From Nitrospirota bacterium (lineage in GTDB: Bacteria; Nitrospirota; Thermodesulfovibrionia; Thermodesulfovibrionales; UBA9159): a stretch of 38,840 nt of DNA. Location of the stretch: contig JAMCWJ010000096.1 of the NCBI GenBank assembly GCA_023475105.1, positions 1 through 38,840 of the forward strand, read 5' to 3'. Every line of letters begins with the position of its first letter. Position 1 is the stretch's first letter. Shown in pieces: positions 2,413 through 18,472 of the stretch. The notes under the pieces were generated by a model, which made no database searches, was not told the DNA's origin, and saw nothing but the letters and a program-made list of their open reading frames with translations. The translations under genes and the position numbers were made by a program.

Positions 2413-3519
2413 CTAGCTGATCCTCTTCCTGAATCTCAGTGCGCTTATCGCTATCACCACCACGCCCAGAACAAACAATGAACCCATTTGCGGCCAGAGG
2501 ATGTCCAAGCCGTTGCCCTTCAAGAATATGCCCCTGATTATTATGAGAAAATATCTGAGGGGATTTATGTAAGTTCCATACTGAATTATCTCCGGCATAT
2601 TCTCTATCGGGAACATAAAACCCGAAAGCAGAACAGCAGGTATATAAAAAAGAAATGTCGCCATCATCGCCTGCTGCTGGGTTCTTGATATGGTGGATAT
2701 GAAAAGACCTATGCCCAACACTGAAAAGAGATAGATTGCCGTAGCCAAAGGCATCAGCTGTATCGGGCCTTTTATTGGAATATCGAACCAGAATATGCCC
2801 ACCATTGTCACAAGAAATACATCAAAGAAACCTATGATGGCAAAGGGAATTGTCTTGCCGAGCATAAGTTCAATCGGCTTTAATGGTGTGACCATGAGCT
2901 GCTCCATAGTTCCTATCTCCCTTTCGCGCACGACAGCCATTGATGTGAGCAAAAGGCAGGTGAGCATTATAACTATGGCAATAACTCCCGGCACATTGTA
3001 ATTCTTGCTCCTCAAATCCGGGTTATACCATGCCCTTGTGCGCAAATCAATCCTGACGGGCTCAACTCTTTGCCTTTCCATATCCTTTGTATACTTGATA
3101 ATAACCCTATTTGCATAATCCATAGCGACCGTCGCGGTATTAGAGTCCGTCCCGTCAACGAGTATCTGCACCTCCGTCTGCCTGCGATTTTTTAAATCCG
3201 ATGAAAAGCCTCTGTCTATCTGAAGCGCAGTGGCGATCTTGCCTCTGTCAAGCAGTTCCCGTATTTCGTCGGGCGATTGCGCCACGTATCTGATATCGAA
3301 ATATCCGGAGGATTTTAGCCTCCTTACAAGCTCCCGGCTCTCATATGATTTATCGAGGTCGTATATGGCCGTGGAGATATTGTTCACATCCGTCGTAACC
3401 GCATAGCCGAAGGCGAGTAGCTGCATGATAGGGGTTAAGAAGACGATGGCGATCATCCTTCTGTCCCTGAAGACCTGGATGAATTCCTTGATGATCATCT
3501 GTTTTATGCGTTCAAACAT
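2413..3519 (-). CDS. ABC-2 type transporter permease (YbhS/YbhR-like)
   Basis: 368 aa with N-terminal TM, large periplasmic loop, then a 5-TM C-terminal ABC-2 membrane domain. Paralogous to the adjacent permease. The start overlaps the stop of the upstream gene at 3519. Confidence 0.85.
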   Translation of the reverse strand: MFERIKQMIIKEFIQVFRDRRMIAIVFLTPIMQLLAFGYAVTTDVNNISTAIYDLDKSYESRELVRRLKSSGYFDIRYVAQSPDEIRELLDRGKIATALQIDRGFSSDLKNRRQTEVQILVDGTDSNTATVAMDYANRVIIKYTKDMERQRVEPVRIDLRTRAWYNPDLRSKNYNVPGVIAIVIMLTCLLLTSMAVVREREIGTMEQLMVTPLKPIELMLGKTIPFAIIGFFDVFLVTMVGIFWFDIPIKGPIQLMPLATAIYLFSVLGIGLFISTISRTQQQAMMATFLFYIPAVLLSGFMFPIENMPEIIQYGTYINPLRYFLIIIRGIFLKGNGLDILWPQMGSLFVLGVVVIAISALRFRKRIS

Positions 3520-4628
3520 TACACAATCCTCTTTTTGAACTTTTTATTCGCCAGCGCAAGTACCGCCAAACCAAAGACCGTCAGCAACACTGTCTCAAGA
3601 ACGAGAAACTTCAAAGTGATACCCTTCAGAAATATCCCCTTCAGTATCGATACAAAATATCGCGCGGGTATGGCATAAGTAATAATCTGAAGCGGTTTCG
3701 GCATGTTCGCTATGGCATACATGAACCCTGAAAGGAGAAACGCGGGGAGAAATGTTGCGACCATCGAAATCTGGCTTGCCACAAGCTGAGATTTTGCGGC
3801 AATCGATATGAGTATGCCCAGGCTCAGCCCTCCGAAGAGAAAGATCGACGAAAGTGCCGCAAGTAGAACAAGGTTCCCCCTTAAAGGGACATCAAATATG
3901 AAAACGGCCATCATGACCGAGAGTATGACATCAATGAAGCCTATAACGAAGTAGGGGATGAGCTTGCCGAGTATGAGTTCGGGCGTCTTTACCGGTGTGG
4001 ATATCAACTGTTCCATGGTTCCCCTTTCCCACTCACGTGCAATGGTAAGCGAGGTGAGGAGCGCGGCAATGACCGCCATAATGACCGCGATGAGTCCAGG
4101 GATTATGTAGTTCCTCGACTTGAGTTCTGGGTTGTACCAAACCCTTACCCTGGGGTCTATGAGGGGGGTAATACGACTCCCCTTTATTCTTTGGGAGTAG
4201 AGTTCTGTCACTGCGGATATATACCCTATCGCAATGGTTGCCGTGTTTGAGTCGCTTCCGTCAACGATCACTTGGAGTCCGGCATTTTCACCTTTTAGGA
4301 TATTCCTGGAGAAGTCCGCAGGAATTGCTATTGCCACCTGGGCTTTACCCGAATCGAGATACCTGTCGATCTCCCTATGTTCATTCACATTGTCGACAAC
4401 CGTAAAGTACCCTGATTCGCGAAATTCTGTTATAAGCTCTCTGCTCAGGTTGCTCTTGTCGAGATCGTAGACAACGGTTTTCAGATTATTCACATCGAGA
4501 GTTATCGCATACCCGAAGATAAAGAGGAGCATCACCGGCATAAGGAATGCCATAGCCAGACTCAGGGGATCACGCCATATCTGTATCAGCTCCTTCTTTG
4601 CGATGGCCTTGATTCTTAAGACTTTCAT
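3519..4628 (-). CDS. ABC-2 type transporter permease (YbhR/YbhS-like)
   Basis: 369 aa with the same architecture as 2413..3519, about 40% similar by eye. Lies downstream of two ATPase genes in the same orientation. Confidence 0.85.
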   Translation of the reverse strand: MKVLRIKAIAKKELIQIWRDPLSLAMAFLMPVMLLFIFGYAITLDVNNLKTVVYDLDKSNLSRELITEFRESGYFTVVDNVNEHREIDRYLDSGKAQVAIAIPADFSRNILKGENAGLQVIVDGSDSNTATIAIGYISAVTELYSQRIKGSRITPLIDPRVRVWYNPELKSRNYIIPGLIAVIMAVIAALLTSLTIAREWERGTMEQLISTPVKTPELILGKLIPYFVIGFIDVILSVMMAVFIFDVPLRGNLVLLAALSSIFLFGGLSLGILISIAAKSQLVASQISMVATFLPAFLLSGFMYAIANMPKPLQIITYAIPARYFVSILKGIFLKGITLKFLVLETVLLTVFGLAVLALANKKFKKRIV

Positions 4629-4665
4629 CTTTCTTTCCTCGCTGCGCGTAGCGCGTTACGGTTTT

Positions 4666-5592
4666 TCATGCCGCCTCTATCAACGTGACGAAGACATCTT
4701 CCAGGGACGGCATGATCCTTTCGATCCTGAACACGTGTATCTGCGATTCCTCAATGGCCTTCCTAATCGTGGGGATCGCATGCTCGGCGCTGATGACCGT
4801 GGCGTGGATAAGACTGCCGAAGAGCGCTGTCTCTATCCCTTGTCGATGCAGCACCTCCATTGCTTCCACCGGCCTCCCGGCCTCGATTTCGAGCACATCC
4901 CTTGGCATGTGTTTTTGTTTCATCTCGAGAGGTGTGCCTTCGGCAATGACCCTTCCCCGGTAGATTAGGGCGAGCCTATCGCAGTACTCCGCCTCGTCCA
5001 TATAATGAGTTGTTACGAAGATCGTCGTTCCGGACCGCGACATGCCGTAGATGAGATCCCAGAAATTCCGTCGCGATACAGGGTCCACACCTGAAGTAGG
5101 CTCATCGAGAAAGATAATCGGCGGCTCATGGAGAATGGCGCACCCGAGGGCTAGCCTTTGCTTGAAGCCACCTGGGAGCGTTTTTGTGACGGCCCTCCTC
5201 CGGTCTTGAAGGCCCGCCATCTCAAGCACCCATTCCTCCCTTTTTTTCTTCCTGCTGTTTGAGACGCCGTAGATACCGCTGAAGAACTCTATATTTTCCC
5301 CTACCGTGAGATCGTCATACAGAGAAAACTTCTGCGACATGTAGCCTATGGTCTTCTTGATCTCTTCTGATTCTTTCATGATGTCGTATCCGCCGACCGA
5401 ACCCTCCCCGCCCGCGGGCAGAAGGAGGCCGCAGAGCATCTTGATTGTGGTGGACTTACCCGCACCGTTCGGTCCCAGAAACCCGAAGATCTCGCCCTTT
5501 TTCACGCTGAGATCGATCATGTCAACAGCGGTGAAATCGCCAAAGCGCTTCGTCAACCCCCGGACCTTCACCGCGATGGTGCTTCTGTTCAT
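4666..5592 (-). CDS. ABC transporter ATP-binding protein
   Basis: Walker A GPNGAGKSTT, ABC signature LPGGFKQRL, Walker B IIFLDEPTSGVD. Confidence 0.9.
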   Translation of the reverse strand: MNRSTIAVKVRGLTKRFGDFTAVDMIDLSVKKGEIFGFLGPNGAGKSTTIKMLCGLLLPAGGEGSVGGYDIMKESEEIKKTIGYMSQKFSLYDDLTVGENIEFFSGIYGVSNSRKKKREEWVLEMAGLQDRRRAVTKTLPGGFKQRLALGCAILHEPPIIFLDEPTSGVDPVSRRNFWDLIYGMSRSGTTIFVTTHYMDEAEYCDRLALIYRGRVIAEGTPLEMKQKHMPRDVLEIEAGRPVEAMEVLHRQGIETALFGSLIHATVISAEHAIPTIRKAIEESQIHVFRIERIMPSLEDVFVTLIEAA

Positions 5593-6512
5593 CTTCCCTC
5601 CACCTGCGACAGGAAGATATCTTCTATCGATGGCGTGATCTCTCTCAGGCTGCTGATCTTAATGCCAGAATCTCCAAGACGCTCGACAACCCGTCGGGAA
5701 ATGTCCGGGGATTCAAGCGTCGCATGGAGCCTGTCTCCGTAGAGATTCACGCTCCTCACCCCGTCCACGCCCCTCACGGCTTCCAGCGCGGCCCGCGAAT
5801 CTTCGACCCACACCTCGATCATCGGATATCCAAGAGAGTTCTTTACTATCGCAGGGCTGTCCTCAATGAGGATTCTTCCCTTGTGGATAAGTCCGATCCT
5901 TCCGCACCTCTCTGCCTCATCAAGATATGCCGTCGAGACAAATATGGTCACCTCCTCTTTCAGGAGATCATAGAGGATCCTCCAGAAGTCCCTCCTCGAC
6001 ACAGGGTCGACCCCGTTCGTCGGCTCATCGAGGAAAAGCACTTCAGGGGTGTGGATCAGAGCGCAGGCAAGTCCGAGCTTCTGCTTCATACCGCCGGAAA
6101 GCTTTCCTGCGAGCCTGTCTTTGAAAGGTGTCAGGTTGCTGAAGCCAAGGAGCCTTTCGATCCTCTGCGGCCTCTCACTTTGCGGCACCTCATAGAGATC
6201 TGCATAAAAGAAAATGTTTTCCATTACCGTGAGATCCTCGTAAAGGCCGAACCTCTGGGACATGTAACCGATTTTTTCCTTAATCCTCTCCCCCTCTTGT
6301 GCAATAGAATGGCCCGCTACCCAGGCCTTGCCCGATGTCGGCCCCATGACGGCAGTGAGAAGCCTCATAATTGTCGTTTTTCCTGCACCGTCCGGACCGA
6401 CAAGCCCGAACAACTCACCTTTTTCAATCTCAAGGTTCAGGTTGTCAACAGCAATGTTGTCACCGAAAGACTTGGTCAGGTTTAACATCCTTATTGCTAT
6501 CGCTTTATTCAT
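5589..6512 (-). CDS. ABC transporter ATP-binding protein
   Basis: Walker A GPDGAGKTT, signature LSGGMKQKL, Walker B VLFLDEPTNGVD. 4-nt overlaps with both neighbouring genes indicate translational coupling. Confidence 0.9.
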   Translation of the reverse strand: MNKAIAIRMLNLTKSFGDNIAVDNLNLEIEKGELFGLVGPDGAGKTTIMRLLTAVMGPTSGKAWVAGHSIAQEGERIKEKIGYMSQRFGLYEDLTVMENIFFYADLYEVPQSERPQRIERLLGFSNLTPFKDRLAGKLSGGMKQKLGLACALIHTPEVLFLDEPTNGVDPVSRRDFWRILYDLLKEEVTIFVSTAYLDEAERCGRIGLIHKGRILIEDSPAIVKNSLGYPMIEVWVEDSRAALEAVRGVDGVRSVNLYGDRLHATLESPDISRRVVERLGDSGIKISSLREITPSIEDIFLSQVEGR

Positions 6513-7492
6513 CGCAATAGTATCCTCACATCAGCAGGCATGCTCGGTTTCAGTTCGTCATTGACATTCTTCGCGCTCACCTTCACGCCAAAGACGAGTT
6601 TAACCCGCTCCTCCTGTGTCTGGACATTCTTTGGAGTAAACTCTGCTTCCGATGATATAAAGGTAACTGTGCCCTCATATTCTTTCCCCGGATAGGAATC
6701 AGTTTTGATCTCAGCCTTCTGCCCAAGTTTCACAAGACCGAGCTTATCCTCCTTCACATACACCTTTACCCAGGGGTTTTCAAGGTCGCCTATGGTGTAA
6801 ACAGGCATACCCGATGCCACTGTTTCACCAAGTTCGCTATTTTTCCTCAATATTACACCCGGGACCGGCGCATATATCACCGTGTCTTTCAATCTCTCTC
6901 CGGATGTAGTCAACGCTGCCTTTGCCTGCCGGACACGCTGCTCTGCAGCCTTTATCTCCTCTATTCTTGGCCCCTCTTTCACAAGACTCAACTTCTCTAA
7001 GGCGTTCTTCCGCTGTGACGCAGTGGTATCATATGCTTTGCTTGCAGCATCAAACTGGGAAGCCGGGATTGCACCGTTTCTATAAAGCATCTCGGCCCTC
7101 TCGTAATCCTTCTTTGCCTTGTTCAGTTCCGCCTCTGCCTGGCTCACATTCGCCCGTGCCTGCTCAATCTCCTGGGGTCTCGAACCGACCCTGAGTTCTT
7201 CAAGTCTTGCCCTGGTCTCATTCAGATATGCCCTGTTTTGTGCAACAATGCTTTCAAGTTCAGCGCTATCAAGGACGGCAAGCCTGTCGCCCTTTCCAAC
7301 CTTCTGGCCTTCTTCCGCCAAAAGCTCCACCACTCTTCCCGGGAGCTTGAATCCCATATTCACCTCTGTAACTTCCACATTCCCTGAGACGGCAAGGATT
7401 CCAGGCTCCTCCTGATTGCCAAAGCGATGTATCAGAAACGCGGATACAACTATTAAAAAGAGAATTCCAACAAGCAATAATTTCTTCTTCAT
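6509..7492 (-). CDS. HlyD-family membrane fusion (periplasmic adaptor) protein, YbhG-like
   Basis: N-terminal TM anchor, long coiled-coil region, then a beta-barrel/lipoyl-like C-terminus. GGAGG RBS upstream of the ATG at 7492. Sits between the TolC-like and ABC genes. Confidence 0.85.
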   Translation of the reverse strand: MKKKLLLVGILFLIVVSAFLIHRFGNQEEPGILAVSGNVEVTEVNMGFKLPGRVVELLAEEGQKVGKGDRLAVLDSAELESIVAQNRAYLNETRARLEELRVGSRPQEIEQARANVSQAEAELNKAKKDYERAEMLYRNGAIPASQFDAASKAYDTTASQRKNALEKLSLVKEGPRIEEIKAAEQRVRQAKAALTTSGERLKDTVIYAPVPGVILRKNSELGETVASGMPVYTIGDLENPWVKVYVKEDKLGLVKLGQKAEIKTDSYPGKEYEGTVTFISSEAEFTPKNVQTQEERVKLVFGVKVSAKNVNDELKPSMPADVRILLR

Positions 7493-8811
7493 TGAGATAC
7501 CTCCTCTTTGTATATGTCCTCACCAATTGCTCTCCTTAAGGATGCAACAGCGATATGCTTATCGAAATTTGCCTGATAAAAGTCGGCTTCGGCCCTGAGG
7601 AGTGCTGTCTGGGCATCGATTACGTCGGCGCTTGTACCTGCACCTGTTTCGTACTTCAAAAGCTCTATCCGGAGGTTTTCCTTCGCGGTTTCAATCGCTT
7701 TTCCAGAGACGTCAATCCTCTCCCCCGCGTTTTCGATGTTCAGATATGCATCCCTTATTTCCCGAAGTATCTCAAGTCGCAAAGTCCGTTCCTCTTCTTT
7801 AACCTTTTCAGCCTCCTTTCTTGCCCGGTTCACTTCCGCCTTTATGCTTCCCCCGTCAAAGATGGGAAGAGACAATCTCAGTGCAAGATTCCAGTTCTCC
7901 TTCAATGTAACACTCTCTCCAGAGCTCTCAGAGTATCCACCGCTCAGATAAACGTGGGGAAGCCGCTTCCCTTGCACAAGTCTTATCTGCTCCTCAGCCA
8001 ATCTCTGATTCTTCAGGACCGCCTGATAATCGGGCCTCTGAGAAAGGGCCCTTGCGGTACTTTCCTCGGGAGAATACCTGAAGACCAACGGCTCTTCGCC
8101 GACAACGGAGATCTTCCTCGTCTGGTCCTCAATACCCATGAGCGTCTTGAGGACTTCATATGCGCTTTCGAGATTATTCCTGGTAAGCAGGGCATTCTGC
8201 CTTGCATGGGCAAGTTCGGTCTCTGTTTTTAATAGCTCCACCTTCGGTACTGTCCCCGCCTGAAGGAAGAGTTCCACATTCTTCCTGTGCGCCTCCAGCT
8301 GCTTCACGGATGCCTCGTTTGCTTCAAGGAGTCTGTCGAGCTGTCCGATTTTATAGAAGACGCTCGTTACGTTGTAAATGAGTTCCTGCCTGCTCACCTG
8401 AAACGTATCCTCTGCTATGCGTTTCTTAATCTCTGCAATCGCAACACCTCTGTCGAGACGGCCACCCCTGTATAAAGGAAGAAAGAAGGAGACACCCATG
8501 TCATATATGGTGTTGTCGAACTCGGGGAATGCCGCACCTGCAAGAGGATTACCCGAGATAGGAGTAACCGGAGCAGGATAGCGGTATCTTGTTATCCCGC
8601 TGCTGAAATCAACCCTCGGCAGCCTTTCGGCCTTTGCCCTGTCGATTCCATAGGTTTCGATTTCCACATCCTTGCCTGATGCGGCAAGTCTCGGATTGTT
8701 CTTCAAAGCAAAATCAACTGCCTCTGATAAGGCGTAGGGAACCGCATCAGCATCGGCAAGGGCTGCATCGGGCAGCAGAATCAGGCACATGATGACAAGC
8801 AGTTTTTTCAT
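7489..8811 (-). CDS. TolC-family outer-membrane efflux protein
   Basis: Signal peptide (MKKLLVIMCLILLPDAALA). Two repeated helical/beta halves typical of outer-membrane factors. GGAGGAGG RBS upstream of the ATG at 8811. Confidence 0.85.
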   Translation of the reverse strand: MKKLLVIMCLILLPDAALADADAVPYALSEAVDFALKNNPRLAASGKDVEIETYGIDRAKAERLPRVDFSSGITRYRYPAPVTPISGNPLAGAAFPEFDNTIYDMGVSFFLPLYRGGRLDRGVAIAEIKKRIAEDTFQVSRQELIYNVTSVFYKIGQLDRLLEANEASVKQLEAHRKNVELFLQAGTVPKVELLKTETELAHARQNALLTRNNLESAYEVLKTLMGIEDQTRKISVVGEEPLVFRYSPEESTARALSQRPDYQAVLKNQRLAEEQIRLVQGKRLPHVYLSGGYSESSGESVTLKENWNLALRLSLPIFDGGSIKAEVNRARKEAEKVKEEERTLRLEILREIRDAYLNIENAGERIDVSGKAIETAKENLRIELLKYETGAGTSADVIDAQTALLRAEADFYQANFDKHIAVASLRRAIGEDIYKEEVSQ

Positions 8812-8862
8812 AAAATCCTCCTCCTAAGCAAATCTTGACTTACATAGGAAAAACAAAAAAAT

Positions 8863-9474
8863 TTAGGTTGCGACGCATGTTCTAAAATTTTCCCATAATT
8901 TCATCCCCTCATCCACAAGAGGAAATGAAAAACCGCTAAGAGACCACCTCATCGCAGTGACCTGTACCATCCCGATGAGCATCAATGCAGCAGCTTTTGG
9001 ATTGAGGTCTCTTTTGATCACGCCTCCTTTCTGACCTTCACTTACGACGGACTCCAGCCGTGCAGCATAGGCGCCAATGGCGTTGAGCAGTGTTCTCTTG
9101 AGCTCTTCGTTTCCTGCATGAATTTCTTCAGAAAACACGAGCCTCGGGATTCCACCATTTCTCTCTATGTAGTCAAGGTGCAGCATAAAAGCCTTTCTCA
9201 GCTTTACCAGGGGAGAATCGGCAACGCCGGTGTTCGAAACGTTTTCGAGGTTTCTCAGGAGCTCCTCTCCGATTTTTTCTACTGTTGCGGAAAGGATTTC
9301 TTCTTTGCTTCCGAAATGCCTGTAAAGGTTCGCCTCCGAAATTCCGATCTCTCGCGCGAGTGCGGCAGTGGTAAGACCGCTCATCCCTTTAGCGCTGAGG
9401 ATCTTCATTGTGGCCTGAACAATTTGCCCACGCCTCGTATCCCTGCTCATTTTCACAGCTCTGTCCCTGTCCAA
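8863..9474 (-). CDS. TetR/AcrR-family transcriptional regulator
   Basis: N-terminal HTH (TTAALAREIGISEANLYRHFGSKEEIL) typical of TetR. It is the first gene of the minus-strand efflux operon. Confidence 0.85.
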   Translation of the reverse strand: MDRDRAVKMSRDTRRGQIVQATMKILSAKGMSGLTTAALAREIGISEANLYRHFGSKEEILSATVEKIGEELLRNLENVSNTGVADSPLVKLRKAFMLHLDYIERNGGIPRLVFSEEIHAGNEELKRTLLNAIGAYAARLESVVSEGQKGGVIKRDLNPKAAALMLIGMVQVTAMRWSLSGFSFPLVDEGMKLWENFRTCVAT

Positions 9475-9690: not shown

Positions 9691-10701
9691 ATGAGATTCG
9701 ATGAGAGAGGTACCGTTGTGAGGAGAACGTACGCAGAGGAAGCGCTGACCGACACGGGAGCGTTGGTGGTCTCCGCGCGCCTCCTCCCCTATCGGCGGTT
9801 TGCGCAGGCGGCGTTTATCCTGCTCATACTCCTGATGCCCGTGTTGAATATCCTGCGCTATGATTCCGCTTCAAGGGAGCTGATCCTGTTCGGCCAGGTC
9901 TGGAGTCTCGGGCTGAAGCAGGGCTTTTATGCGGACCATACCGTATCCGGCGCGGGGTATATCGCCGTTCATTTTTTCCTCAGGGCGATACTCCCCTGGG
10001 TCCTCGTCCTTTCGGTCTTCCCGCTCCTGGGGTTTCTCACCGGAAGACTCTTCTGTGGCTGGCTCTGCCCCGAAGGGGCCCTGTTCGAGTGGGCTGATTA
10101 CCTCACCCTGAAGCTTCTCGGAAGAAGAAGCCTCTTCAGGAGGAAAGCGAACGACCCCGGCGAAATGAAAGGCAACCCTGTCTTCTACGGGACCCTCGCG
10201 GTTCTCAGTATCGTGCTCATTCCTCTGTGCGGCGGCATAGCCCTCACCGGATATTTCGTTGCACCGGAGACGATCTGGAACCAGCTCATCCATGGAAGCT
10301 TTACCCCAGGAGTAAGAGCGGGAATCATCGGAGTCTCGATCTACATGCTTACAGGTTCGGTCTTCGTGAGACACACGTTCTGCAAATTCGTCTGCGCCGC
10401 AGGACTGATGCAGACGCTTTTCGGCTGGGTCAGCCCGGTCTCGCTGAGGCTGCGCATGGGCTTTGAAAGGATCGGGGAGTGTACGGACTGCAGGGCCTGC
10501 GAGAAGGCATGCTTCATGAATGTCCTTCCAAGGAAGAACAAGCGGGACATCTCCTGCGTGAACTGCGGCGCCTGCATCGACGCCTGCAACAAGGAACTCG
10601 GGGGGAGAGGCCTTTTCCATTATTCGGCTGGTGAATACAGTCGCGGGGCGCCTGCCGAAAAATGCGGGCGCCCCGCGGTGAAGACGCTTTACGGCGGCTA
10701 G
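9691..10701 (+). CDS. polyferredoxin-type 4Fe-4S membrane protein (NapH/MauN/CcoG-like)
   Basis: Several TM helices. CGWLCPEG motif. Two C-terminal ferredoxin motifs, CTDCRACEKAC and CVNCGACIDAC. The start is ambiguous among ATGs at 9691 and 9701 and a nearby GTG. Confidence 0.7.
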   Translation: MRFDERGTVVRRTYAEEALTDTGALVVSARLLPYRRFAQAAFILLILLMPVLNILRYDSASRELILFGQVWSLGLKQGFYADHTVSGAGYIAVHFFLRAILPWVLVLSVFPLLGFLTGRLFCGWLCPEGALFEWADYLTLKLLGRRSLFRRKANDPGEMKGNPVFYGTLAVLSIVLIPLCGGIALTGYFVAPETIWNQLIHGSFTPGVRAGIIGVSIYMLTGSVFVRHTFCKFVCAAGLMQTLFGWVSPVSLRLRMGFERIGECTDCRACEKACFMNVLPRKNKRDISCVNCGACIDACNKELGGRGLFHYSAGEYSRGAPAEKCGRPAVKTLYGG

Positions 10702-11795
10702 ATGGCCTTGATCCTCCTCAGCGCGCCGACGAAGTTATCGACGAGCAGGGGGTTGAAGTCCCTTGCCGTCGCCTCTTTCATGAGCTGCACTACCTTCGGA
10801 CTTTCGAGCGCCCTCCGGTAAGGCCTTTCGGTCCTCAGGGCATCAAAGAAGTCTGCAATAGCCACTATCTGGCTTATGATGTGCTGGTGATTTCTCCGGC
10901 GCTTTGTCTCAGGGTATCCGCTCCCATCAAATTTCATATGGTGCTCGAAAGCCGCGATCAGGGCGAGTTTCGGAACGTCTGAAAGGGTAGCAAGGTACCG
11001 CGCACCGAAGACGGGATGGGTCTTGATGGCGTTCCACTCCTCCAGATCCAGTTTTGTTACCTTCTCCAGGACCTCCTTTGAGACAAACAGCTTCCCCACA
11101 TCATGAAGAAGCCCGGCAAGGCCGACATCATGAAGATTCTCGCCTTTCATGCCCAGGGCTTCTGCCTGAAATATGGCAAGCACCGAGACGTTTGTGGCAT
11201 GGACATAGGTGTATTCACTGTAAGATTTCATCGGGCTGACGACGCGAAGAACATTAGTCTCCTTCTTCAGGGTCGTGATGAAGCCGGTAACCGCATCTTC
11301 CAGGCTCACTATGTCCAGTCTTCTAAATTTGGCAATCCCTTGGCAGAGCCCTTTGACCTTTGCGATATTCTCGTTTATCAAGGCGCTCACATCGGTCCCT
11401 GCCGAGTTGAACCTCACCTCCACCATGCCGACGGACAGGTGAGGGCTGGATACAACCTTTTCGGTGGAAGCAACACCGGCGATAAACTTCTTAAATTCCT
11501 CAATGCCGAGCCCCTTCTTTAGGACGATCTTTTCTATCCCTTTCCTCTTAAGTCTCCTTTTAAGACTGCTTATGTGGGTGCCCTTATCGGTGACGGGGCT
11601 GTTATTGAAGACCAGGCTGTCTCCCAGGAGGGTAAGGGTCAAGGTATCGTCAGAATAGAGTTCTTCCGCCACTCTCAGGGCATTTCCAGAGAACTCGCCT
11701 ACGAGGGGGTGCTGCTCAGAATATAATGAACAGTTCGAAAGGGCAGTCATTAAATGGGAAATAAGTTCAGTTACCTTCCCTTGAGACATTGTCAT
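10698..11795 (-). CDS. HD-GYP domain c-di-GMP phosphodiesterase with ~170-aa uncharacterised N-terminal domain (copy 1)
   Basis: HD motif LLHDVGK and the HHMKFDGSGYP (HD-GYP) signature. Converges on the 4Fe-4S gene with stop codons overlapping by 3 nt. Confidence 0.85.
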   Translation of the reverse strand: MTMSQGKVTELISHLMTALSNCSLYSEQHPLVGEFSGNALRVAEELYSDDTLTLTLLGDSLVFNNSPVTDKGTHISSLKRRLKRKGIEKIVLKKGLGIEEFKKFIAGVASTEKVVSSPHLSVGMVEVRFNSAGTDVSALINENIAKVKGLCQGIAKFRRLDIVSLEDAVTGFITTLKKETNVLRVVSPMKSYSEYTYVHATNVSVLAIFQAEALGMKGENLHDVGLAGLLHDVGKLFVSKEVLEKVTKLDLEEWNAIKTHPVFGARYLATLSDVPKLALIAAFEHHMKFDGSGYPETKRRRNHQHIISQIVAIADFFDALRTERPYRRALESPKVVQLMKEATARDFNPLLVDNFVGALRRIKAI

Positions 11796-13974
11796 TCCCT
11801 TTCTGTTTCAGGTTGAGAAGTCTTTCGCTTATTGCTCTGAATCTCTTCAGTTTCTCGCTTATTGTCCTGATCTCATTGTTCTTCGAGGTCAACCCCTTCT
11901 CAAGCAGGGGCTTCACCGCGGAATGAGGGTAGTTGGCGAGGCTCCTGAAGATCTCGGTCTTGAGTTCTTCCATGTCCGATTTATTAAGCATGGTCTTTGA
12001 CTGATAGAGCCTTGTCAGCGCCTCCGCCGCCCTGGGGTCTCCGATATCTCCCAACGCCTTCACTACGGGGATTTTGTAACGCCACTCCCTGCCGAAGAGA
12101 TCCTTCTTTTCGAGGATTTCGAGGAGATAGGGCACCGCCTCCTTGACCCGATGCGCACCTGCCAGTCTCACCACCTGATCCCGCAATGCCAGGTCCTTTG
12201 ACTGCAGGTAAAGTCTGATATATGAAAAGGTTCCGGGGACGTTGAAATGAAGAAGCGTTTTAACCGCCTCGATACTTATCCCTTTCTCCGCGTGTTTTGC
12301 AAGGGCTTCGATGCGGTCGACATAATTCACGCCGCCGCATTCTCTGATGAGATAGATCATATTCCGCACCACATACCACCGGTCGTCATTGAGCCTCCGC
12401 ACCGCGTCAGGGAGGATATCGTTCCTGAATCCCGCGAGTACCGAAAGAAGAAATTTCCTTATCGAGGGGTCTTTCTCCTCAGCAAGGGCGTCAAAGAGAG
12501 GATCGGTGAGATACCGTTTTAGCAGGCCTGCGAGTTTTGTCACCCCTTCCCTTTCAAACCTTCCCCAGAGCTTAAAGGCATCGACCATTTTTGCTATGGA
12601 GTCTTTCGAATAGAAGTAGGACTCGAGCATGCCGGATGCCTGCTCCCGGTATTTTCCGGCAAGGCTGTGGGAGTAAAGGGTGTTGTAGATGTCCGATATC
12701 TCCTCGAATCTCCCGGTCTCCAGAAAATCGCTGCCGAGTTCGGAGAGTTTTGAGAGCAGTGCAAGATAGTCATCCCTGCCTGTCCTATCCGAGTCGAGCA
12801 GTTCGAGCATAATACCGGATGCAACCCTGTCCACTGTTTCATCCCTGCACTCGATTGCCACCTCTTCAAGGATCGGCGACTTCTTCACTTCGAAGCCCCT
12901 GAGCATTCTTTCGATCTCTGCCTGGTATTTGTCCGTAACGAAGGTCTCGAATTGATCTTCGCTAAAAAGTCCCATAATGTGCTCGTCGATCTCCAGATCG
13001 TCCACAAGCCCCTTCTTGTCGACGATAAGGTCAAAAAAGCCCCGCCCTTTTTTTGCGGTGTTTAGCTTATCGATGAGATTCCGCAGACTGTCGGGGATGA
13101 GGGAAGAATGCTCGGCGAAGACGGTCATCATCTTCTCGATGTCGGCCCGCGTGAGCTCTCCGAACAGCCGCGCAGCCTCTCCGGCATCGATGGAGGGGCC
13201 GCTGAATGCCCTCTTAAGGAACTGCTGCTTGATCGTCGGACTGAGATTCTGAACCATCGAGATGAACCGGGTGAAGAGATCCCTGTTGATTCCTGAATCC
13301 TCTTTTTTTCTGAGGTAGGTAGTAATCACCCTGTCGTACGTCACCTCAGGCGTGTCCTGGGCCATCTGACGGTTGATTAAATCGGCGATATCCTCGGGGG
13401 CCACACTGAGGAGCACTCCCTCCGCATCTCCCTCCGCAAGTCTTCCCTCAAGAAGACCGTACACGTAATCTTCCCAGATTTTGGTCTCATCGCCATCCTG
13501 CCGAAGGGAGTCCTCGACAAAGCCGAACTTCGAAATGTCCAGAGCGGTCAGCACAACGTGTTTGAGGCCTTTTTCCTGCGTAAGCTCCGCGAGGGTCTTG
13601 CCCGTGGGCATGTCCTTCGCCGTAATCAGCTCATGCAGTCCGAGAAGCTCCTCCACCCCTAGCCCCGAATAAAAGGTGATGGCCGCGATTCCCCTGTTGT
13701 GAACACTGAGCGCAAATTCCTTAAATACAGGGTTTTTCCTGTCCAGAGTATATTCATCTACTACAAGGGTATCCTTCGCGATGCCGATGGTGATGCTGCT
13801 TCTGAGTTCAAAGAGTTTCTTGAGGAACTCGAAGGCTTTTTCTATGGATTCTCTGGTTATAGGATGTTCCGGGGGATAAAGGCTGACACTTCTCCTCGAG
13901 ATATTGAGCTCGATGACCGCATCGGAAAGAAGCTTGGCGTCGATCGGGAGCTTCTCACTTCTCTTCTCTTCCAT
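11767..13974 (-). CDS. 735-aa protein with uncharacterised N-terminal region and C-terminal HEAT/PBS-lyase-like repeats (copy 1, intact)
   Basis: Repeats of the AVPYLLEILEKKD...VVKALGDIGDPRAAEAL type in the last ~250 aa. Overlaps the HD-GYP gene start by 29 nt. No GGDEF or EAL motifs. Confidence 0.7.
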   Translation of the reverse strand: MEEKRSEKLPIDAKLLSDAVIELNISRRSVSLYPPEHPITRESIEKAFEFLKKLFELRSSITIGIAKDTLVVDEYTLDRKNPVFKEFALSVHNRGIAAITFYSGLGVEELLGLHELITAKDMPTGKTLAELTQEKGLKHVVLTALDISKFGFVEDSLRQDGDETKIWEDYVYGLLEGRLAEGDAEGVLLSVAPEDIADLINRQMAQDTPEVTYDRVITTYLRKKEDSGINRDLFTRFISMVQNLSPTIKQQFLKRAFSGPSIDAGEAARLFGELTRADIEKMMTVFAEHSSLIPDSLRNLIDKLNTAKKGRGFFDLIVDKKGLVDDLEIDEHIMGLFSEDQFETFVTDKYQAEIERMLRGFEVKKSPILEEVAIECRDETVDRVASGIMLELLDSDRTGRDDYLALLSKLSELGSDFLETGRFEEISDIYNTLYSHSLAGKYREQASGMLESYFYSKDSIAKMVDAFKLWGRFEREGVTKLAGLLKRYLTDPLFDALAEEKDPSIRKFLLSVLAGFRNDILPDAVRRLNDDRWYVVRNMIYLIRECGGVNYVDRIEALAKHAEKGISIEAVKTLLHFNVPGTFSYIRLYLQSKDLALRDQVVRLAGAHRVKEAVPYLLEILEKKDLFGREWRYKIPVVKALGDIGDPRAAEALTRLYQSKTMLNKSDMEELKTEIFRSLANYPHSAVKPLLEKGLTSKNNEIRTISEKLKRFRAISERLLNLKQKGNDNVSREGN

Positions 13975-14184
13975 CTTTGTTCGTCCCCATCAGACTGAGC
14001 AACTGTCCCCGGACTCCTCTATAATACTACTAATAGCGGAATCTTTAAAGAATCTTTTTTGTCGCGTGATAATTCGACCGGAGGCCCAGCAGGAGCCGGG
14101 CTGAGGTTCCGGGGATTCCCGGCAGGGGGTGGAGATGCGACCGGAAGACTTCTATTTCACAGGTGTGAGGATTCTTTACGGCGG

Positions 14185-15309
14185 TTAGATAGCCTTGATC
14201 CTCTTCAGCGCGCCGACGAAGTTATCGACGAGCAGGGGGTTGAAGTCCCTTCCCGCCGCCGCTTTCATAAACTCGACTGTCGGGCCGATGTCGAGGGCCC
14301 TCCGGTAAGACCTCTCTGTCCTCAGTGCGTCGAAAAAGTCGGCTATTGCGACCATCTGGCTCGCGATATGCTGTCTCTTCCCCCGCCTCTTCGTATCGGG
14401 ATACCCGTTTCCGTTGAATTTCATGTGGTGTTCGAAGGCGGCGATGACCGAAAGTTTCGGCGCGTCCGGGAGTGTTGCAAGATATCGTGCTCCAAGTACC
14501 GGATGCCGCTTTATGGCGTCCCATTCGGTCTCGCTGAGCTTTTCCGTCTTTTCAAGCACCCCTTTCGGTACGAACAACTTCCCCACGTCGTGGAGCAGAG
14601 CTGCAAGACCGAGGTCGTGAAGACTTTCTCCCTGTATCCCCAGGGCCTCTGCCTGGAACATGGTGAGCACCGAAACATTCGTGGCATGCACATAGGTATA
14701 CCCGCTGTAAGACTTCACCGGACTGATTATCCGGAGCACGTTCATCTCCCTTTTCAATGTCGAGATGAATCCCGCCACGGCATCCTCGAGGCTCACCACC
14801 TCCAGTCTTCTGAACTTGGCGACCCCCTGGTAGATCTCCCTGACCTTCGTGATATTTTCGTTTACGAGATCGCTGATATCGACTCCCTCGGCCTTGAATT
14901 TCACCTCGACCATACCCACCGAAACATGTGGGGAGGAGAGCACCCTCTCCCCCGAGACGGCGCGGGCTATGAACTGTTTCAGCTCTTCGAGATCCACCCC
15001 TTTCCGTATCACGATTTTCTCTATCCCTTTCTTCCTCATCCTTTTTTTGAAACTGTCGATATGCGTGCCGGTTTCCTTCACCGGGTTGTCATTTGCGACA
15101 AGACTGTCCCCGAGGAGGGTGAGACTTATCAGGTTGTCGCTGTAGAACCCTTCCATCAGCTCGAGGGCCTTTTGAGCAAACGCGTCGACCAGGGGGTGTC
15201 TCTCCGAGTAGAGGGAACAGTTCGAAAGGGAGGTCACGAGGTGAGAGATGAGTTCAGTTGGGTCCTTCGCGGTCATGGCCCTCTCCTTTGTTCCTGAGGA
15301 ATTTTTCAC
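14185..15309 (-). CDS. HD-GYP domain phosphodiesterase (copy 2, paralog of 10698..11795)
   Basis: About 70% aa identity to copy 1 by eye. HHMKFNGNGYP and LLHDVGK motifs are conserved. The last ~65 nt of the 3' end are near-identical to copy 1. Confidence 0.85.
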   Translation of the reverse strand: MKNSSGTKERAMTAKDPTELISHLVTSLSNCSLYSERHPLVDAFAQKALELMEGFYSDNLISLTLLGDSLVANDNPVKETGTHIDSFKKRMRKKGIEKIVIRKGVDLEELKQFIARAVSGERVLSSPHVSVGMVEVKFKAEGVDISDLVNENITKVREIYQGVAKFRRLEVVSLEDAVAGFISTLKREMNVLRIISPVKSYSGYTYVHATNVSVLTMFQAEALGIQGESLHDLGLAALLHDVGKLFVPKGVLEKTEKLSETEWDAIKRHPVLGARYLATLPDAPKLSVIAAFEHHMKFNGNGYPDTKRRGKRQHIASQMVAIADFFDALRTERSYRRALDIGPTVEFMKAAAGRDFNPLLVDNFVGALKRIKAI

Positions 15310-17424
15310 TCATCGTCCGTATCTCTTTGTCCCGTGAAGTGAGCCCGCGTTCAAGAAGGGGCCTCACAGAGGCCGGCGGATACTGGGAGAGGCTCTTCAG
15401 GATCTCGCCCCTTATCTCCTCCATCCTGCTTCGGTAAAGCAGGCTCCTGGCGCGGCATAGCCTCATGAGCGCATCCAGCGCCCTGGGGTCTCCTATCTCT
15501 CCGAGCGCCCTCACCACGGAAAGCTTGTAATGAAGTTCGATGCCGAAAAGGTCCTTCCGTTCGAGTATTTCGAGAAGGTAAGGGACCGCCTCCCTCACCT
15601 TGTACGCACCCGCAAGCCGTATTATTTGGTCCCGTAACTCGAGGTCTTTGGACTGAAGGAAGAACCTGACGTAGGGAAAAGCCCCGGGGATACCGAAGTG
15701 CAGGAGGGTCTTCGTCGCTTCGACGCTTATCCTCTTGTCCGGATGTTTCGCCAGCGGCTTGACACGGCCGACGTGCTGTATGCCTCCGCACTCCCTGATA
15801 AGGTATATCATGTTTCTCACCACATACCACCGGGCATCGTTCAGTCTTCTCGCCGCCTCCGGGACTATGTCGGTCCTGAAGGCGGCCAGCACGGAAAGGA
15901 AGAACTTCCTTGTCGAAGGATCGGCCTCTCCCGCAAGGGCGTCCAGCAGGGGGTCGGTCAGAGAGCGCTTCAGAACCCGTGCGATACGCATTACCCCTTC
16001 CCTGTTAAGTCTTCCCCAGAGCTTGAACGCCTCGACGAGCTTCGCAAGTGAACGCCTCCGAAGTGAAGGAATACTGGATCATCGCTGCAGCCTCTTCCCT
16101 GAACCTCCCGTTGAGGGCCTCCGAGTAAAGGGCGTTGTAAATCTCGGTGATCTCCTCGAATCTACCGGTCACGAGAAATTCCAACGAGACCTGCAAGCTT
16201 CGTGAGGAGCGCAAGGTACCCTTCCCTGTCCGTGGAGTCAGAGCCGATGAGTTCGATCAGCACCTCGGCGGTCACGCGGTCGATCGTCTCATCCCGGCAC
16301 TCGGCCTTCACTTCCTCCGGCACACGCGACCTCCGGCTGTCGAAGCCTCTCAGCATCCGCTCGAGCTCCTCCTGATATCGCTCTGCAACGAAGCTCTTGA
16401 ATCCGTCCTCGGTGAAAAGCCCCAATATCTCCTCGTCGATCTCGAGGTCGTCCACAACGCCTTTCTCTTCCGCGAGCAGATCGAAGAATCCGTTTCCCCT
16501 CTTGGAAGCTGTCAGCTTATCGATGGTGTTCCTCAGGCTCTCGGGAATGAAGGAGGAGTGCTCGGTGAAAATCCTCATCACCTTCTCTATATCGGACTGC
16601 ATCAGCCCGTTGAATAGCTCTTCGGCCTCCTTCGTGTCGATCTGCGGATAACTGAATGACCTCCTCAGAAACTGCTCCTTGAGCTTCGGATTGAGGTCCT
16701 CAACCATCGAGATAAACCGTGTGAAGAGCTCCCGGTTGAAGCCCGAGTTCTCTTTCCTTCTCAGGTAGCCCGTGATCACTCTGTCGTAAGTCTTTTCCGG
16801 AGCGTTTTCGGGTATCTGTTCGTTGAGGAAGGAGGCAATGTTCCCCGGGGGCAAGGCGAGGAGCACCCCCTCGGCCTCCGAATCGGCGAGCTTCCCCTCG
16901 AGCAGTCCGTACACATAATCTTCCCATATCGCGCCTTCGGGGCCGGTCTCTCTCAGGGAATCCTCTACGAAACCGAACTTCGAAATATCGATGGGGATGA
17001 GGCCCAGGTGCGTGAGACCGTCCTTTCCTGCTCGTTCGGCCAGGGCCTTCCCCACAGGGGCCTCCTTCGAGGTGATCAGCTTCTGCAGACCGACGAGTTC
17101 GTCCCTTTCAAGCCCCGTATAAAAAGTGATCGCCGCGATTCCCTTGCGGTGTATGCTGAGGGCGAATTCCCTGTAGACGGGGTTCTTCCTCTCGAGGGTA
17201 TATTCGTCGATCACGAGCGTGTCTTTTGCAACGCCGATCGTGATGCTGCTCCTCAGTTCGAAGAGCTTCCGGAGGAACTGAAAGGCCTTATCGATCGACT
17301 CCCGGGCGATGGGATGTTCCGGGGGATAGAGGCCGACACTCCGCCTCGAAATGTTGAGCTCGATGACCGCATCGGAAAGAAGCTTGGCGTCGATCGGAAG
17401 CTTCCCGCTTCTCTTCTCTTCCAC
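15254..17424 (-). pseudogene. HEAT-repeat protein gene, copy 2, disrupted by two frameshifts (ORF fragments 16162..17424, 16005..16214, 15254..15991)
   Basis: The three ORF fragments are collinear with the copy-1 protein (N-terminal 420 aa, middle 69 aa, C-terminal 245 aa). Frames shift near ~16200 and ~16060-16080. The aligned segment between the conserved CTTCCCCAGAG and GAGTAAAG anchors is 120 nt here (~16008..16127) versus 119 nt in copy 1 (~12559..12677), a net 1-nt indel. Confidence 0.6.
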
Positions 17425-17445
17425 TAATTGTTCGTCCCCCTCAGA

Positions 17446-17476
17446 CTTGAGCAGCTGTCCCCGGACTCCTATATAA
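17446..17476 (+). promoter_or_regulatory. putative sigma70-type promoter for the Clp1-like gene (TTGAGC - 17 nt - TATATAAT)
   Basis: Hexamers read by eye. The sequence is conserved in the duplicated copy at ~14000-14030. Confidence 0.3.
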
Positions 17477-17581
17477 TACTACTAATAGCGAAGTCTTTAA
17501 AGAATCTTTTTTTGTCGTTGGAGTAATTCGACCCGTGGCCCTGCAGGAGCGGCTGACGGTCCCCGGGATTCCCGGCAGGAG

Positions 17582-18472
17582 GTGGAGATGCGACCGGAGG
17601 ACTTCATAACGGACAGGGAGGTCCTCGAAGAATTGGTCGGGCCCCGGAACAGGCTCATAATGGTCCTGGGGGCCTCCGACACGGGGAAAACGGCCCTTGT
17701 TGCAACGCTCGCGGCGTTTCTTTCCGAGCTCGCACCGGCCGCGGTCGTGGATCTGGACATGGGACAGTCCCATATAGGACCTCCGGCAACGATCGCCTGG
17801 GGCAGGATCGACCGGGGGGGCGCGGAGTGGTCGGCTGTCGCTGTCGAAGACTTCTATTTCACGGGAAGCACCACGCCCTTCGGGAATCTTCTGCCGGCTG
17901 TTACCGGCTCAAAGCTCATGACGGACAAGGCCCTTTTCTCGTGCCGGAAGGTTCTGGTCGACACCACGGGGCTCGTTGCGGAACCGGCGGGACGGGCGTT
18001 GAAGCACTTCAAGATCGATCTCCTGGGTCCGGACATCATCCTCGCTCTTGAACATTCAGGCGAGTTGAGCCATATCCTCGACCCCTTCAGGCCGGCGAAA
18101 CACCCTAAGGTATACAGGCTCCTCGCGCCGAAGGGGGCGCGGGCGAAGACATCGGCCGGAAGGAGTCTCTACCGGTTCGAAAAGATGGAGCGTTATTTTG
18201 CGGATTCAGAGGTCCGCGCTGTTCCGATCGATGATGTCGGGATGCGATTCACAAAGGGACCGGCGCCCCCCGGAGCCCTGAAGCACAGGATCGTCTCCTT
18301 CAGGGACGAGGAGAACAGGGACATCGCCCTCGGCCTCGTCGAGGGGGTGAAGGAGGAGGAAGGTCTTCTCCTCATACGCACCCCTTTGGGAGAAGGGAGA
18401 CGCTTCTGCACCCTGGTGGTCGGAAAAACCGAAATGGACAGGGCGAACTCCCTGTTGACCGATGTGCGCTGA
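17582..18472 (+). CDS. Clp1-family P-loop protein (polynucleotide 5'-kinase-like)
   Basis: IMVLGASDTGKTALVATL matches the Clp1 P-loop VMVVGPTDVGKSTLCRLL. VDLDMGQSHIGPPAT matches VELDVGQGSVSIPGT. FYFTGSTTPFGN matches YHFGSTTPGTN. VDTTGLVAEPAGRAL matches NTCGWVKGSGYQAL. The true start may be the second ATG at 17588, which has better AGGAGG spacing. Confidence 0.7.
   Translation: MEMRPEDFITDREVLEELVGPRNRLIMVLGASDTGKTALVATLAAFLSELAPAAVVDLDMGQSHIGPPATIAWGRIDRGGAEWSAVAVEDFYFTGSTTPFGNLLPAVTGSKLMTDKALFSCRKVLVDTTGLVAEPAGRALKHFKIDLLGPDIILALEHSGELSHILDPFRPAKHPKVYRLLAPKGARAKTSAGRSLYRFEKMERYFADSEVRAVPIDDVGMRFTKGPAPPGALKHRIVSFRDEENRDIALGLVEGVKEEEGLLLIRTPLGEGRRFCTLVVGKTEMDRANSLLTDVR

Follow-up and report, generated by a model that had tools for sequence, protein, structure and literature searches.

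How does a bacterial genome come to hold, next to each other, two versions of one two-gene module that differ at about 30% of their positions, and what does that distance say about the age of the duplication that brought them together? The question is raised by contig JAMCWJ010000096.1 of a Nitrospirota bacterium (assembly GCA_023475105.1), analysed over its complete length of 38,840 nucleotides (nt), hereafter the window, in which an HD-GYP gene and a HEAT-repeat gene occur twice in tandem between a 4Fe-4S gene and a Clp1-like gene. We propose that a native segment was duplicated first, that homeologous recombination then swapped the interior of the left copy for a foreign allele, and that in the right copy the native HEAT gene has begun to decay, a history to which we give a probability of about 0.6. 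In what follows, the left copy is unit A, the right copy is unit B, and L-numbers designate the related loci or genomes with which they were compared. The main features are:

10678 to 14164, no strand: unit A, left repeat copy, delimited by BLASTN self-alignment.
14165 to 17865, no strand: unit B, right repeat copy, extending into the intact Clp1 gene as far as the original right boundary.
9691 to 10701, plus strand: left flank, 4Fe-4S (CcoG/NapH-like) gene (Pfam Fer4_5 and Fer4_18; NCBIfam CcoG/NapH-like); its final 24 nt (10678-10701) fall within the duplicated unit.
10698 to 11795, minus strand: HD_A, intact HD-GYP phosphodiesterase-type gene (Pfam HD_5, 3.5e-19; PDB 4mcw, E=1.4e-25).
11767 to 13974, minus strand: HEAT_A, intact, encoding a 735-residue protein with C-terminal HEAT/PBS-lyase repeats (Pfam HEAT_2, 3.8e-17).
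14185 to 15309, minus strand: HD_B, intact HD-GYP gene (Pfam HD_5, 7.8e-21; G+C content at third codon positions, GC3, 71.3).
15254 to 17424, minus strand: HEAT_B, putative pseudogene with two +1 frameshifts (extra G at 16182, extra A at 16049).
17582 to 18472, plus strand: right flank, Clp1-like P-loop gene (Pfam CLP1_P, 1.7e-24), followed by an ABC transporter gene pair (ABC, ABC2).

A BLASTN comparison of the window with itself pairs 10678-14152 with 14165-17605 (3,497 columns, 70.3% identical); this pair is its single internal repeat, and there is no third copy. Both genes of each unit lie on the minus strand, with the HEAT gene upstream of the HD gene. The copies are adjacent and direct, align over their full length, meet at a right-to-left boundary junction and have single-copy relatives, as expected of a tandem segmental duplication. 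An earlier sequence-only reading of this DNA had described a tandem two-gene module, and the alignment of the units over ~3.5 kb at 70.3% bears this out; its statement that each unit encodes an HD-GYP protein and a ~735-residue HEAT protein holds for both gene types, with HD_A, HD_B and HEAT_A intact, but not for HEAT_B, which is frameshifted. The single-copy ancestral state that it predicted exists as well: L001, L003, L004, L059 and L060 carry one copy in the order 4Fe-4S (forward), HD and HEAT (reverse), then Clp1, ABC and ABC2 (forward), and L002 is also single-copy, with Clp1 missing. We scanned for the HEAT protein in one genome per species and recovered 58 loci (L001-L058), of which L001-L024 were checked for the HD-GYP neighbour; among these the HD-GYP gene follows the HEAT gene wherever the locus reaches far enough, and none holds a tandem HEAT-HD pair.

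The first indication that the units did not simply diverge side by side is the uneven distribution of their differences, which partitions unit A into three blocks:

10678 to 10783, no strand: left end block of unit A, comprising the 4Fe-4S tail and the HD C-terminal codons, close to unit B at 14165-14270.
10784 to 13879, no strand: interior of unit A, probable foreign block (L059/L060/L001-like), each breakpoint uncertain by ~30 nt.
13880 to 14152, no strand: right end block of unit A, comprising the HEAT N-terminal codons, the intergenic control region and the Clp1 5' fragment, close to 17330-17605.

Identity between the units is 85% in the 4Fe-4S tail (10678-10697), 91.9% in the HD C-terminal coding segment (10698-10783), 90.5% in the HEAT N-terminal coding segment (13880-13974), 85-96% in the scar pieces at the junction and 88.5% over the right end block as a whole (13880-14152); in the interior (10784-13879) it falls to 68.0%, a divergence of ~32%. 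Synonymous sites follow the same pattern, the proportion of synonymous differences (pS) between A and B being 0.10-0.14 in the left end block (0.10 for the final 29 codons of HD), 0.32 over the initial 32 codons of HEAT and 0.71-0.78 (saturated) in the interiors; the ratio of nonsynonymous to synonymous divergence (dN/dS) is ~0.1. In the interior, informative sites uniting A with L001 outnumber those uniting it with B by 3-4 to 1, and at both ends A agrees with B against L001. The two-breakpoint maximum chi-square is 83, a value that 100 permutations, none above 36, did not approach; it estimates the breakpoints at 10762-10769 and 13854-13867, and overall they fall near 10762-10800 and 13854-13884. 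Bootstrapped neighbour-joining trees conflict, grouping (A,B) at 99.8% on the 183 coding sites of the ends and (A,L001,L002) at 100% on the 3,024 sites of the interior. The units are mosaics with two breakpoints.

Such a structure is hard to reconcile with the history offered by the sequence-only reading, a single duplication that diverged uniformly in place while functional constraint held its ends similar. The HEAT N-terminus is in fact conserved in all lineages (~80% DNA identity), as constraint would have it. Constraint nevertheless does not lower synonymous divergence (pS 0.10-0.32 at the ends versus 0.7), and it cannot account for the similar ends because the intergenic region, which varies between species, matches between A and B: it is unalignable between species, has no BLASTN match in any of the 62 related loci, and in unit A matches only its twin in unit B. 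The upstream regions are also less alike than the description "nearly identical" suggested, the intergenic part being 85.5% identical with 7 gap positions. With synonymous sites and a species-variable intergenic region equally similar at the ends, we rejected constraint as their cause; and given that the divergence is bimodal (~10% in ends and scar, ~32% in the interior), that the trees conflict and that the A interior is much closer to other genomes than to B, we regard uniform divergence in place as hardly credible.

Which of the two interiors, then, is the newcomer? That of unit A shares 85.4% DNA identity with L059, ~82% with L060 and 80.5% with L001, against 68.0% with unit B. Its synonymous divergence (dS) from L059 is ~0.54, that between L059 and L060 is 0.40-0.44, and its proportion of nonsynonymous differences (pN) from L001, 0.09-0.10, is similar to that between L001 and L002 (0.085); by these distances it appears to lie within the spread of the L059/L060/L001 clade, L059 being the closest lineage sampled. 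The end blocks of unit A are saturated against L059 (pS 0.78-0.80). Neither do the flanks follow the A interior. The window's 4Fe-4S gene differs from that of L001 by pN 0.19 and pS 0.71, compared with 0.067 and 0.40 for L001-L002 and 0.144 and 0.71 for L001-L003; in Clp1, ABC and ABC2 the window is no nearer to L001, L002 or L059 than L003 and L004 are; and the gene order beyond the 4Fe-4S gene (TetR-OEP-efflux) is common to the window and L003, the A-type genomes having cbb3-oxidase genes there. The dN/dS comparison leaves aside the ABC gene of L003, whose extracted sequence was out of frame (pN ~0.74). Unit B is ~70% identical to every relative and branches outside the clade formed by A and ~17 orthologues. 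Among 5.8 billion proteins, HD_B has no non-self homologue above 71% identity, and a closer B-type relative was not found. GC3 divides the units in the same way: 63.5% in HD_A and 65.3% in HEAT_A, within the 63-68% of the HD and HEAT genes of the relatives, and 71.3% in HD_B and 74.0% in HEAT_B, similar to the flanks (71-75%). The interior of unit A thus has the marks of a xenologue, a phylogeny that conflicts with its flanks and a composition shifted towards the donor clade. We conclude from these comparisons that native DNA probably makes up unit B as well as the unit ends, scar and flanks, and that the A interior probably came from an L059/L060/L001-like lineage.

Two simpler assignments were considered and rejected. 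B could be a fast-evolving recent copy of A, but its distances to L001, L003 and L004 do not exceed their distances from one another, its dN/dS is ~0.1, and it does not group with A in trees. B could instead be the imported copy, but its GC3 and phylogenetic depth match the flanks and those of A do not.

The junction between the units records how the duplication was made:

14129 to 14188, plus strand: junction scar and relic open reading frame (ORF), (V/M)EMRPEDFYFTGVRILYGG and a stop codon, delimited by matches to flank fragments.
10664 to 10687, minus strand: terminator-like GC hairpin with T-run downstream of HD_A, from a consensus scan only, its function being putative.

The scar reads GTGGAGATGCGACCGGAAGACTTC TATTTCACAGG T GTGAGGATTCTTTACGGCGGTTAG. 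Positions 14129-14152 correspond to the 5' end of Clp1 (17582-17605; 23/24 identical), 14144-14163 to an internal Clp1 segment (17846-17865; 19/20) and 14165-14188 to the tail of the 4Fe-4S gene (10678-10701; 20/24), the single T at 14164, assigned to none of them, lying between the pieces. The scar appears to be native DNA on both sides, because these three pieces are so nearly identical to the present flanks. Its two Clp1 pieces overlap in a retained 9-nt repeat (14144-14152), which is followed by the internal piece proper (14153-14163). In the Clp1 gene the corresponding direct repeats are GAGGACTTC at 17597-17605 and GAAGACTTC at 17846-17854; what the scar lacks is 17606-17854, 249 nt or 83 codons, P-loop included, so that the lost segment is bounded by 9-nt repeats of which one was kept, the signature of a microhomology or direct-repeat deletion. 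We read the 249 nt as a deletion in the scar and not as an insertion in the Clp1 gene because Clp1 orthologues align across the stretch. The window contains 6 instances of the repeat motif itself, GARGACTTC (GA(A/G)GACTTC). The 11-mer TATTTCACAGG, with one mismatch allowed and both strands of the window searched, is found in the scar and at one other place, directly after GAAGACTTC at 17846, a placement with a chance of ~3e-5 by our own arithmetic (4 x 34/4^11). The relic ORF is in frame, runs for 17-19 codons and ends at 14188; nothing was found to indicate a function for it.

The sequence-only reading had recognized this composition, a Clp1 5' end joined to an internal Clp1 segment and a 4Fe-4S tail, and the three matches uphold it. 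Several details need revision: the relic ORF starts with GTG GAG ATG at 14129, not with ATGGAG at 14134; the 4Fe-4S piece is 24 nt long rather than ~15; and TGTGAGGATT is not filler, being mostly the diverged GTGAAGACG of the 4Fe-4S gene. For the duplicated unit, the right end at about nt 284 of the Clp1-like gene stands, and the left end moves outward, so that 24 rather than ~15 terminal nt of the 4Fe-4S gene are included. A later internal deletion through GA(A/G)GACTTC fits the 249-nt in-frame loss and the relic ORF, although it was possibly the same event as the duplication.

At its left boundary (10678) the duplication cuts the hairpin at 10664-10687, so that HD_B has no copy of it. The hairpin, terminator-like for the HD operon, sits inside the 3' end of the convergently transcribed 4Fe-4S gene, with the duplication boundary at its edge, and the stop codons of the 4Fe-4S gene and HD_A overlap (CTAG at 10698-10701). 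Its loss might allow transcripts of the B operon to read through into operon A, which is speculative.

The scar also bears on an older origin of the pair, in which the duplication would precede the split of L059, L001 and L002, A being their orthologue and B a paralogue lost elsewhere, with the ends homogenised by gene conversion. That B branches outside the A clade is what this history predicts; conversion tracts are common between tandem paralogues, and conversion would also give A its B-like ends. The end pattern is indeed compatible with conversion, yet the scar pieces past the 249-nt gap are equally well preserved: conversion cannot explain how the 11-nt Clp1 piece (10/11) and 4Fe-4S tail (20/24) were preserved in neutral scar DNA beyond 249 nt of heterology, and a 10/11 match at the divergence of the interior has, by our estimate, a chance of ~0.2%. 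Moreover, the flanks would be expected to be L001-like and are not, copies resident together for a dS of ~2 should share their GC3 and do not, and several independent losses of B would be required. We consider an ancient duplication quite unlikely.

Nor does the assembler readily account for the mosaic. The contig is metagenome-assembled and the junction was not met with in any independent assembly, so one might imagine a young native-type duplication in which one interior was exchanged during assembly for the orthologue of a co-occurring L059-like organism. The assembler would have had to cross over twice, each time at an orthologous position, between sequences of just ~70-80% identity, and exact A/B matches near the right breakpoint are, on our reading of the alignment, shorter than 20 nt; as for the scar, the sequences brought together there have no more than 9 nt in common, a join that no k-mer assembler would create. 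An assembly chimera is, in our view, very unlikely.

The proposed history can now be set out from a single-copy ancestral locus, in which the 4Fe-4S gene would have faced the convergent HD-GYP and HEAT genes, with Clp1 divergent beyond them. An illegitimate join with little homology (at most 1-3 nt) would first have connected Clp1 at about nt 284 (17865) to the 4Fe-4S gene at 10678, beside the GC hairpin, giving a tandem duplication of ~3.7 kb, all of it native DNA, of which the junction is visible. The leftover Clp1 fragment then lost the 249 nt between its 9-nt GA(A/G)GACTTC repeats, possibly by slippage, by microhomology-mediated deletion or in the same template-switching event as the duplication. 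Next, the left interior (~10784-13879), whose mosaic state is observed, would have given way to an allele that came from a relative of L059, L060 and L001. Homeologous recombination is the likely route, with crossovers in the best-conserved coding segments, the HD C-terminal one and the HEAT N-terminal one, the latter being that which is ~80% identical in DNA across all lineages; the exchange would have removed ~3 kb of repeat homology and so stabilised the duplication. Finally, the HEAT gene of unit B, the native one, would have gained the two frameshifts that it now carries. Dated by its scar and unit ends, the duplication would be moderately young, at a neutral divergence of ~10-15% (dS ~0.1-0.4).

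The same mosaic could have been reached by another route, namely a cross-cell tandem capture of foreign and native alleles or ectopic conversion by a second intragenomic HEAT-HD locus. In the first variant, the foreign allele replaces the single-copy native one in some members of the population, and chromosomes bearing the one and the other allele then undergo an unequal illegitimate exchange, which requires that DNA from two cells be joined illegitimately; the second has a precedent of sorts in related metagenome-assembled genomes (MAGs) that hold two unlinked HEAT-HD loci (L013/L018, L040/L041, L046/L050), but requires an unseen locus, there being no third copy on the 38.8-kb contig. Both predict the same pattern of ends and interior as duplication followed by import, and we regard this other route as unlikely, though with a real outside chance.

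Several points weigh against duplication followed by import. The whole case is one MAG contig without read support; neither the junction 28-mer nor the P-region pattern was found in public metagenome contigs, which leaves it without an independent assembly, and an exact-protein look-up of HD_B returned no contig. We infer the order of duplication and import because no donor (>85%) and no sister genome of the native lineage have been sampled. RecA-type recombination is inefficient between sequences just 70-80% identical. The coding end blocks are short (183 sites), and the position of the window's species was taken from four flanking genes and synteny. Finally, the HD and HEAT genes of the relatives have a GC3 a few points below that of their own flanks, which weakens the composition argument; unit B still shows the native upward GC3 shift despite this.

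What the two genes encode can be predicted in part. HD_A is 82-83% identical in amino acids to its counterparts in L001 and L059, and HEAT_A 80-84%. HD_B probably starts at the ATG at 15276 (363 residues, matching NCBI protein P0001). Both HD proteins match Pfam HD_5/HD and keep the HDVGK and HHMKF(D/N)G(S/N)GYP motifs, from which phosphodiesterase activity is predicted. The HD_5/HD domain aligns to residues 176-354 of PDB 4mcw (E=1.4e-25), deposited as a 'metal dependent phosphohydrolase', which we take to be PmGH, an HD-GYP protein of Persephonella marina. The likeness to the HD-GYP phosphodiesterases, in both window copies, lies in this domain and its HD and GYP motifs; unlike 4mcw, the window proteins have an N-terminal part of ~180 residues that carries no known domain and is related to the N-terminus of the HEAT partner. 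Residues 29-110 of HEAT_A and 21-101 of HD_A are homologous (BLASTP E=2e-7, 26% identity), without a Pfam model. The HEAT genes carry C-terminal HEAT_2/HEAT_PBS repeats (Pfam), and only these are recognised, the first ~420 residues of the protein having no match in Pfam, NCBIfam or PDB sequences.

HEAT_B is split over three frames, with ORFs at 16162-17424 and 15254-15991, and deleting G 16182 and A 16049 gives back a 722-codon frame colinear with HEAT_A. We read these insertions as real frameshifts because neither site lies in a long homopolymer; HEAT_B is therefore presented as a putative pseudogene, subject to read support, sequencing error being possible.

Two further features stand upstream of the HEAT genes:

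14021 to 14049, minus strand: promoter-like TTTAAA-N17-TATTAT upstream of HEAT_A (consensus scan).
17473 to 17501, minus strand: promoter-like TTTAAA-N17-TATTAT upstream of HEAT_B (consensus scan).

These sites, like the terminator-like one, come from consensus scans and are only suggestive. A 412-codon ORF antisense to HD_B (14059-15297, plus strand), in a different frame from the relic ORF and with no counterpart opposite HD_A, is probably a by-product of high GC3. An Rfam search of the window found no family.

Around the locus and among its relatives, the closest matches to the window's HEAT locus are MAGs of Nitrospirota/Thermodesulfovibrionia, and the 58 loci come from Nitrospirota, Acidobacteriota (Thermoanaerobaculia, Vicinamibacteria), Rokubacteria and others; judged by this distribution, HEAT and HD-GYP appear to form a widespread operon of uncharacterised function. 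Between the HEAT gene and the ABC transporter, a Clp1-like gene occurs in some relatives but not in others (L002, L059 and L011 versus L001, L003, L004 and L060). In the A-type relatives L059 (11061-15363) and L060 (11061-15799), genes of a cbb3-type oxidase (CopD/Cyt-b5, COX1, FixO) come after the CcoG-like 4Fe-4S gene, which hints that the module adjoins a respiratory oxidase cluster there. The 4Fe-4S gene of L002 (13242-14238) and the HEAT gene of L021 (202-2213) both give matches spread over more than one frame and may be further decayed copies or assembly errors. In the window itself, the TetR-OEP-efflux operon (2413-9474) has a GC3 of 53-69% versus ~70-75% in the rest of the contig, and five of its genes are 75-85% identical in amino acids to those of L003; it may be another transferred block.

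The events proposed here all have counterparts elsewhere, and the locus adds a well-resolved new case to kinds of event already known, without revealing a new molecular system. Bacteria make illegitimate tandem duplications through short homologies and lose sequence by slippage between short direct repeats; the right-to-left join with little or no homology, and the loss of one 9-nt repeat with its intervening sequence, are of this kind, with nothing unusual except that the scar is still legible. High-identity patches within otherwise diverged neighbours recall gene conversion and concerted evolution, but here the patch includes non-homologous scar pieces beyond the reach of conversion, and the diverged part of A has a foreign phylogeny. 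The mosaic also resembles xenologous gene displacement in situ and the mosaic operons of Omelchenko et al., 2003, as cited in PMC1779527, where a gene or operon is taken over in place by a homologue from another lineage while its neighbours stay native. Set against such displacement, the window differs in that the native version is still present beside the foreign one, with a duplication scar that shows how room for it arose, and one native gene is only now decaying, which makes it an intermediate rather than a finished displacement. In Streptococcus pneumoniae, transformation-associated merodiploidy likewise keeps an intact native copy in tandem with a donor-modified one (Johnston et al., 2013; PMC3784515); those duplications span 100-900 kb and form by homologous pairing of insertion-sequence-type repeats, with donor DNA at the bridging repeat, whereas the window unit measures 3.7 kb, its junction is an illegitimate one in native DNA, and donor DNA is found in the inside of a single copy.

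The locus, which holds foreign and native versions of an operon next to each other, looks like gene displacement in progress. We tentatively suggest, at slightly less than even odds, that it is a preserved intermediate in which a small duplication served as a landing pad, a foreign allele of the operon was installed by homeologous recombination at no cost to the native function, divergence of the insert stabilised the pair against recombinational collapse, and the native copy is being lost gene by gene, HEAT_B being frameshifted already and HD_B still intact. For the reading of tandem paralogues the case is a caution, in that the 30% divergence between these neighbours is uninformative on the age of their duplication, and a protein phylogeny alone would have labelled B an 'ancient paralogue'. 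Each process is textbook, and the locus is instructive yet ordinary bacterial genome evolution; it nevertheless offers, on one 7-kb stretch of an uncultured Nitrospirota genome, a base-pair record of three processes, in which sequence was joined illegitimately, deleted between direct repeats and exchanged for a homeologous allele, and it suggests a route by which a foreign homologue could displace an operon in place without a loss-of-function stage.

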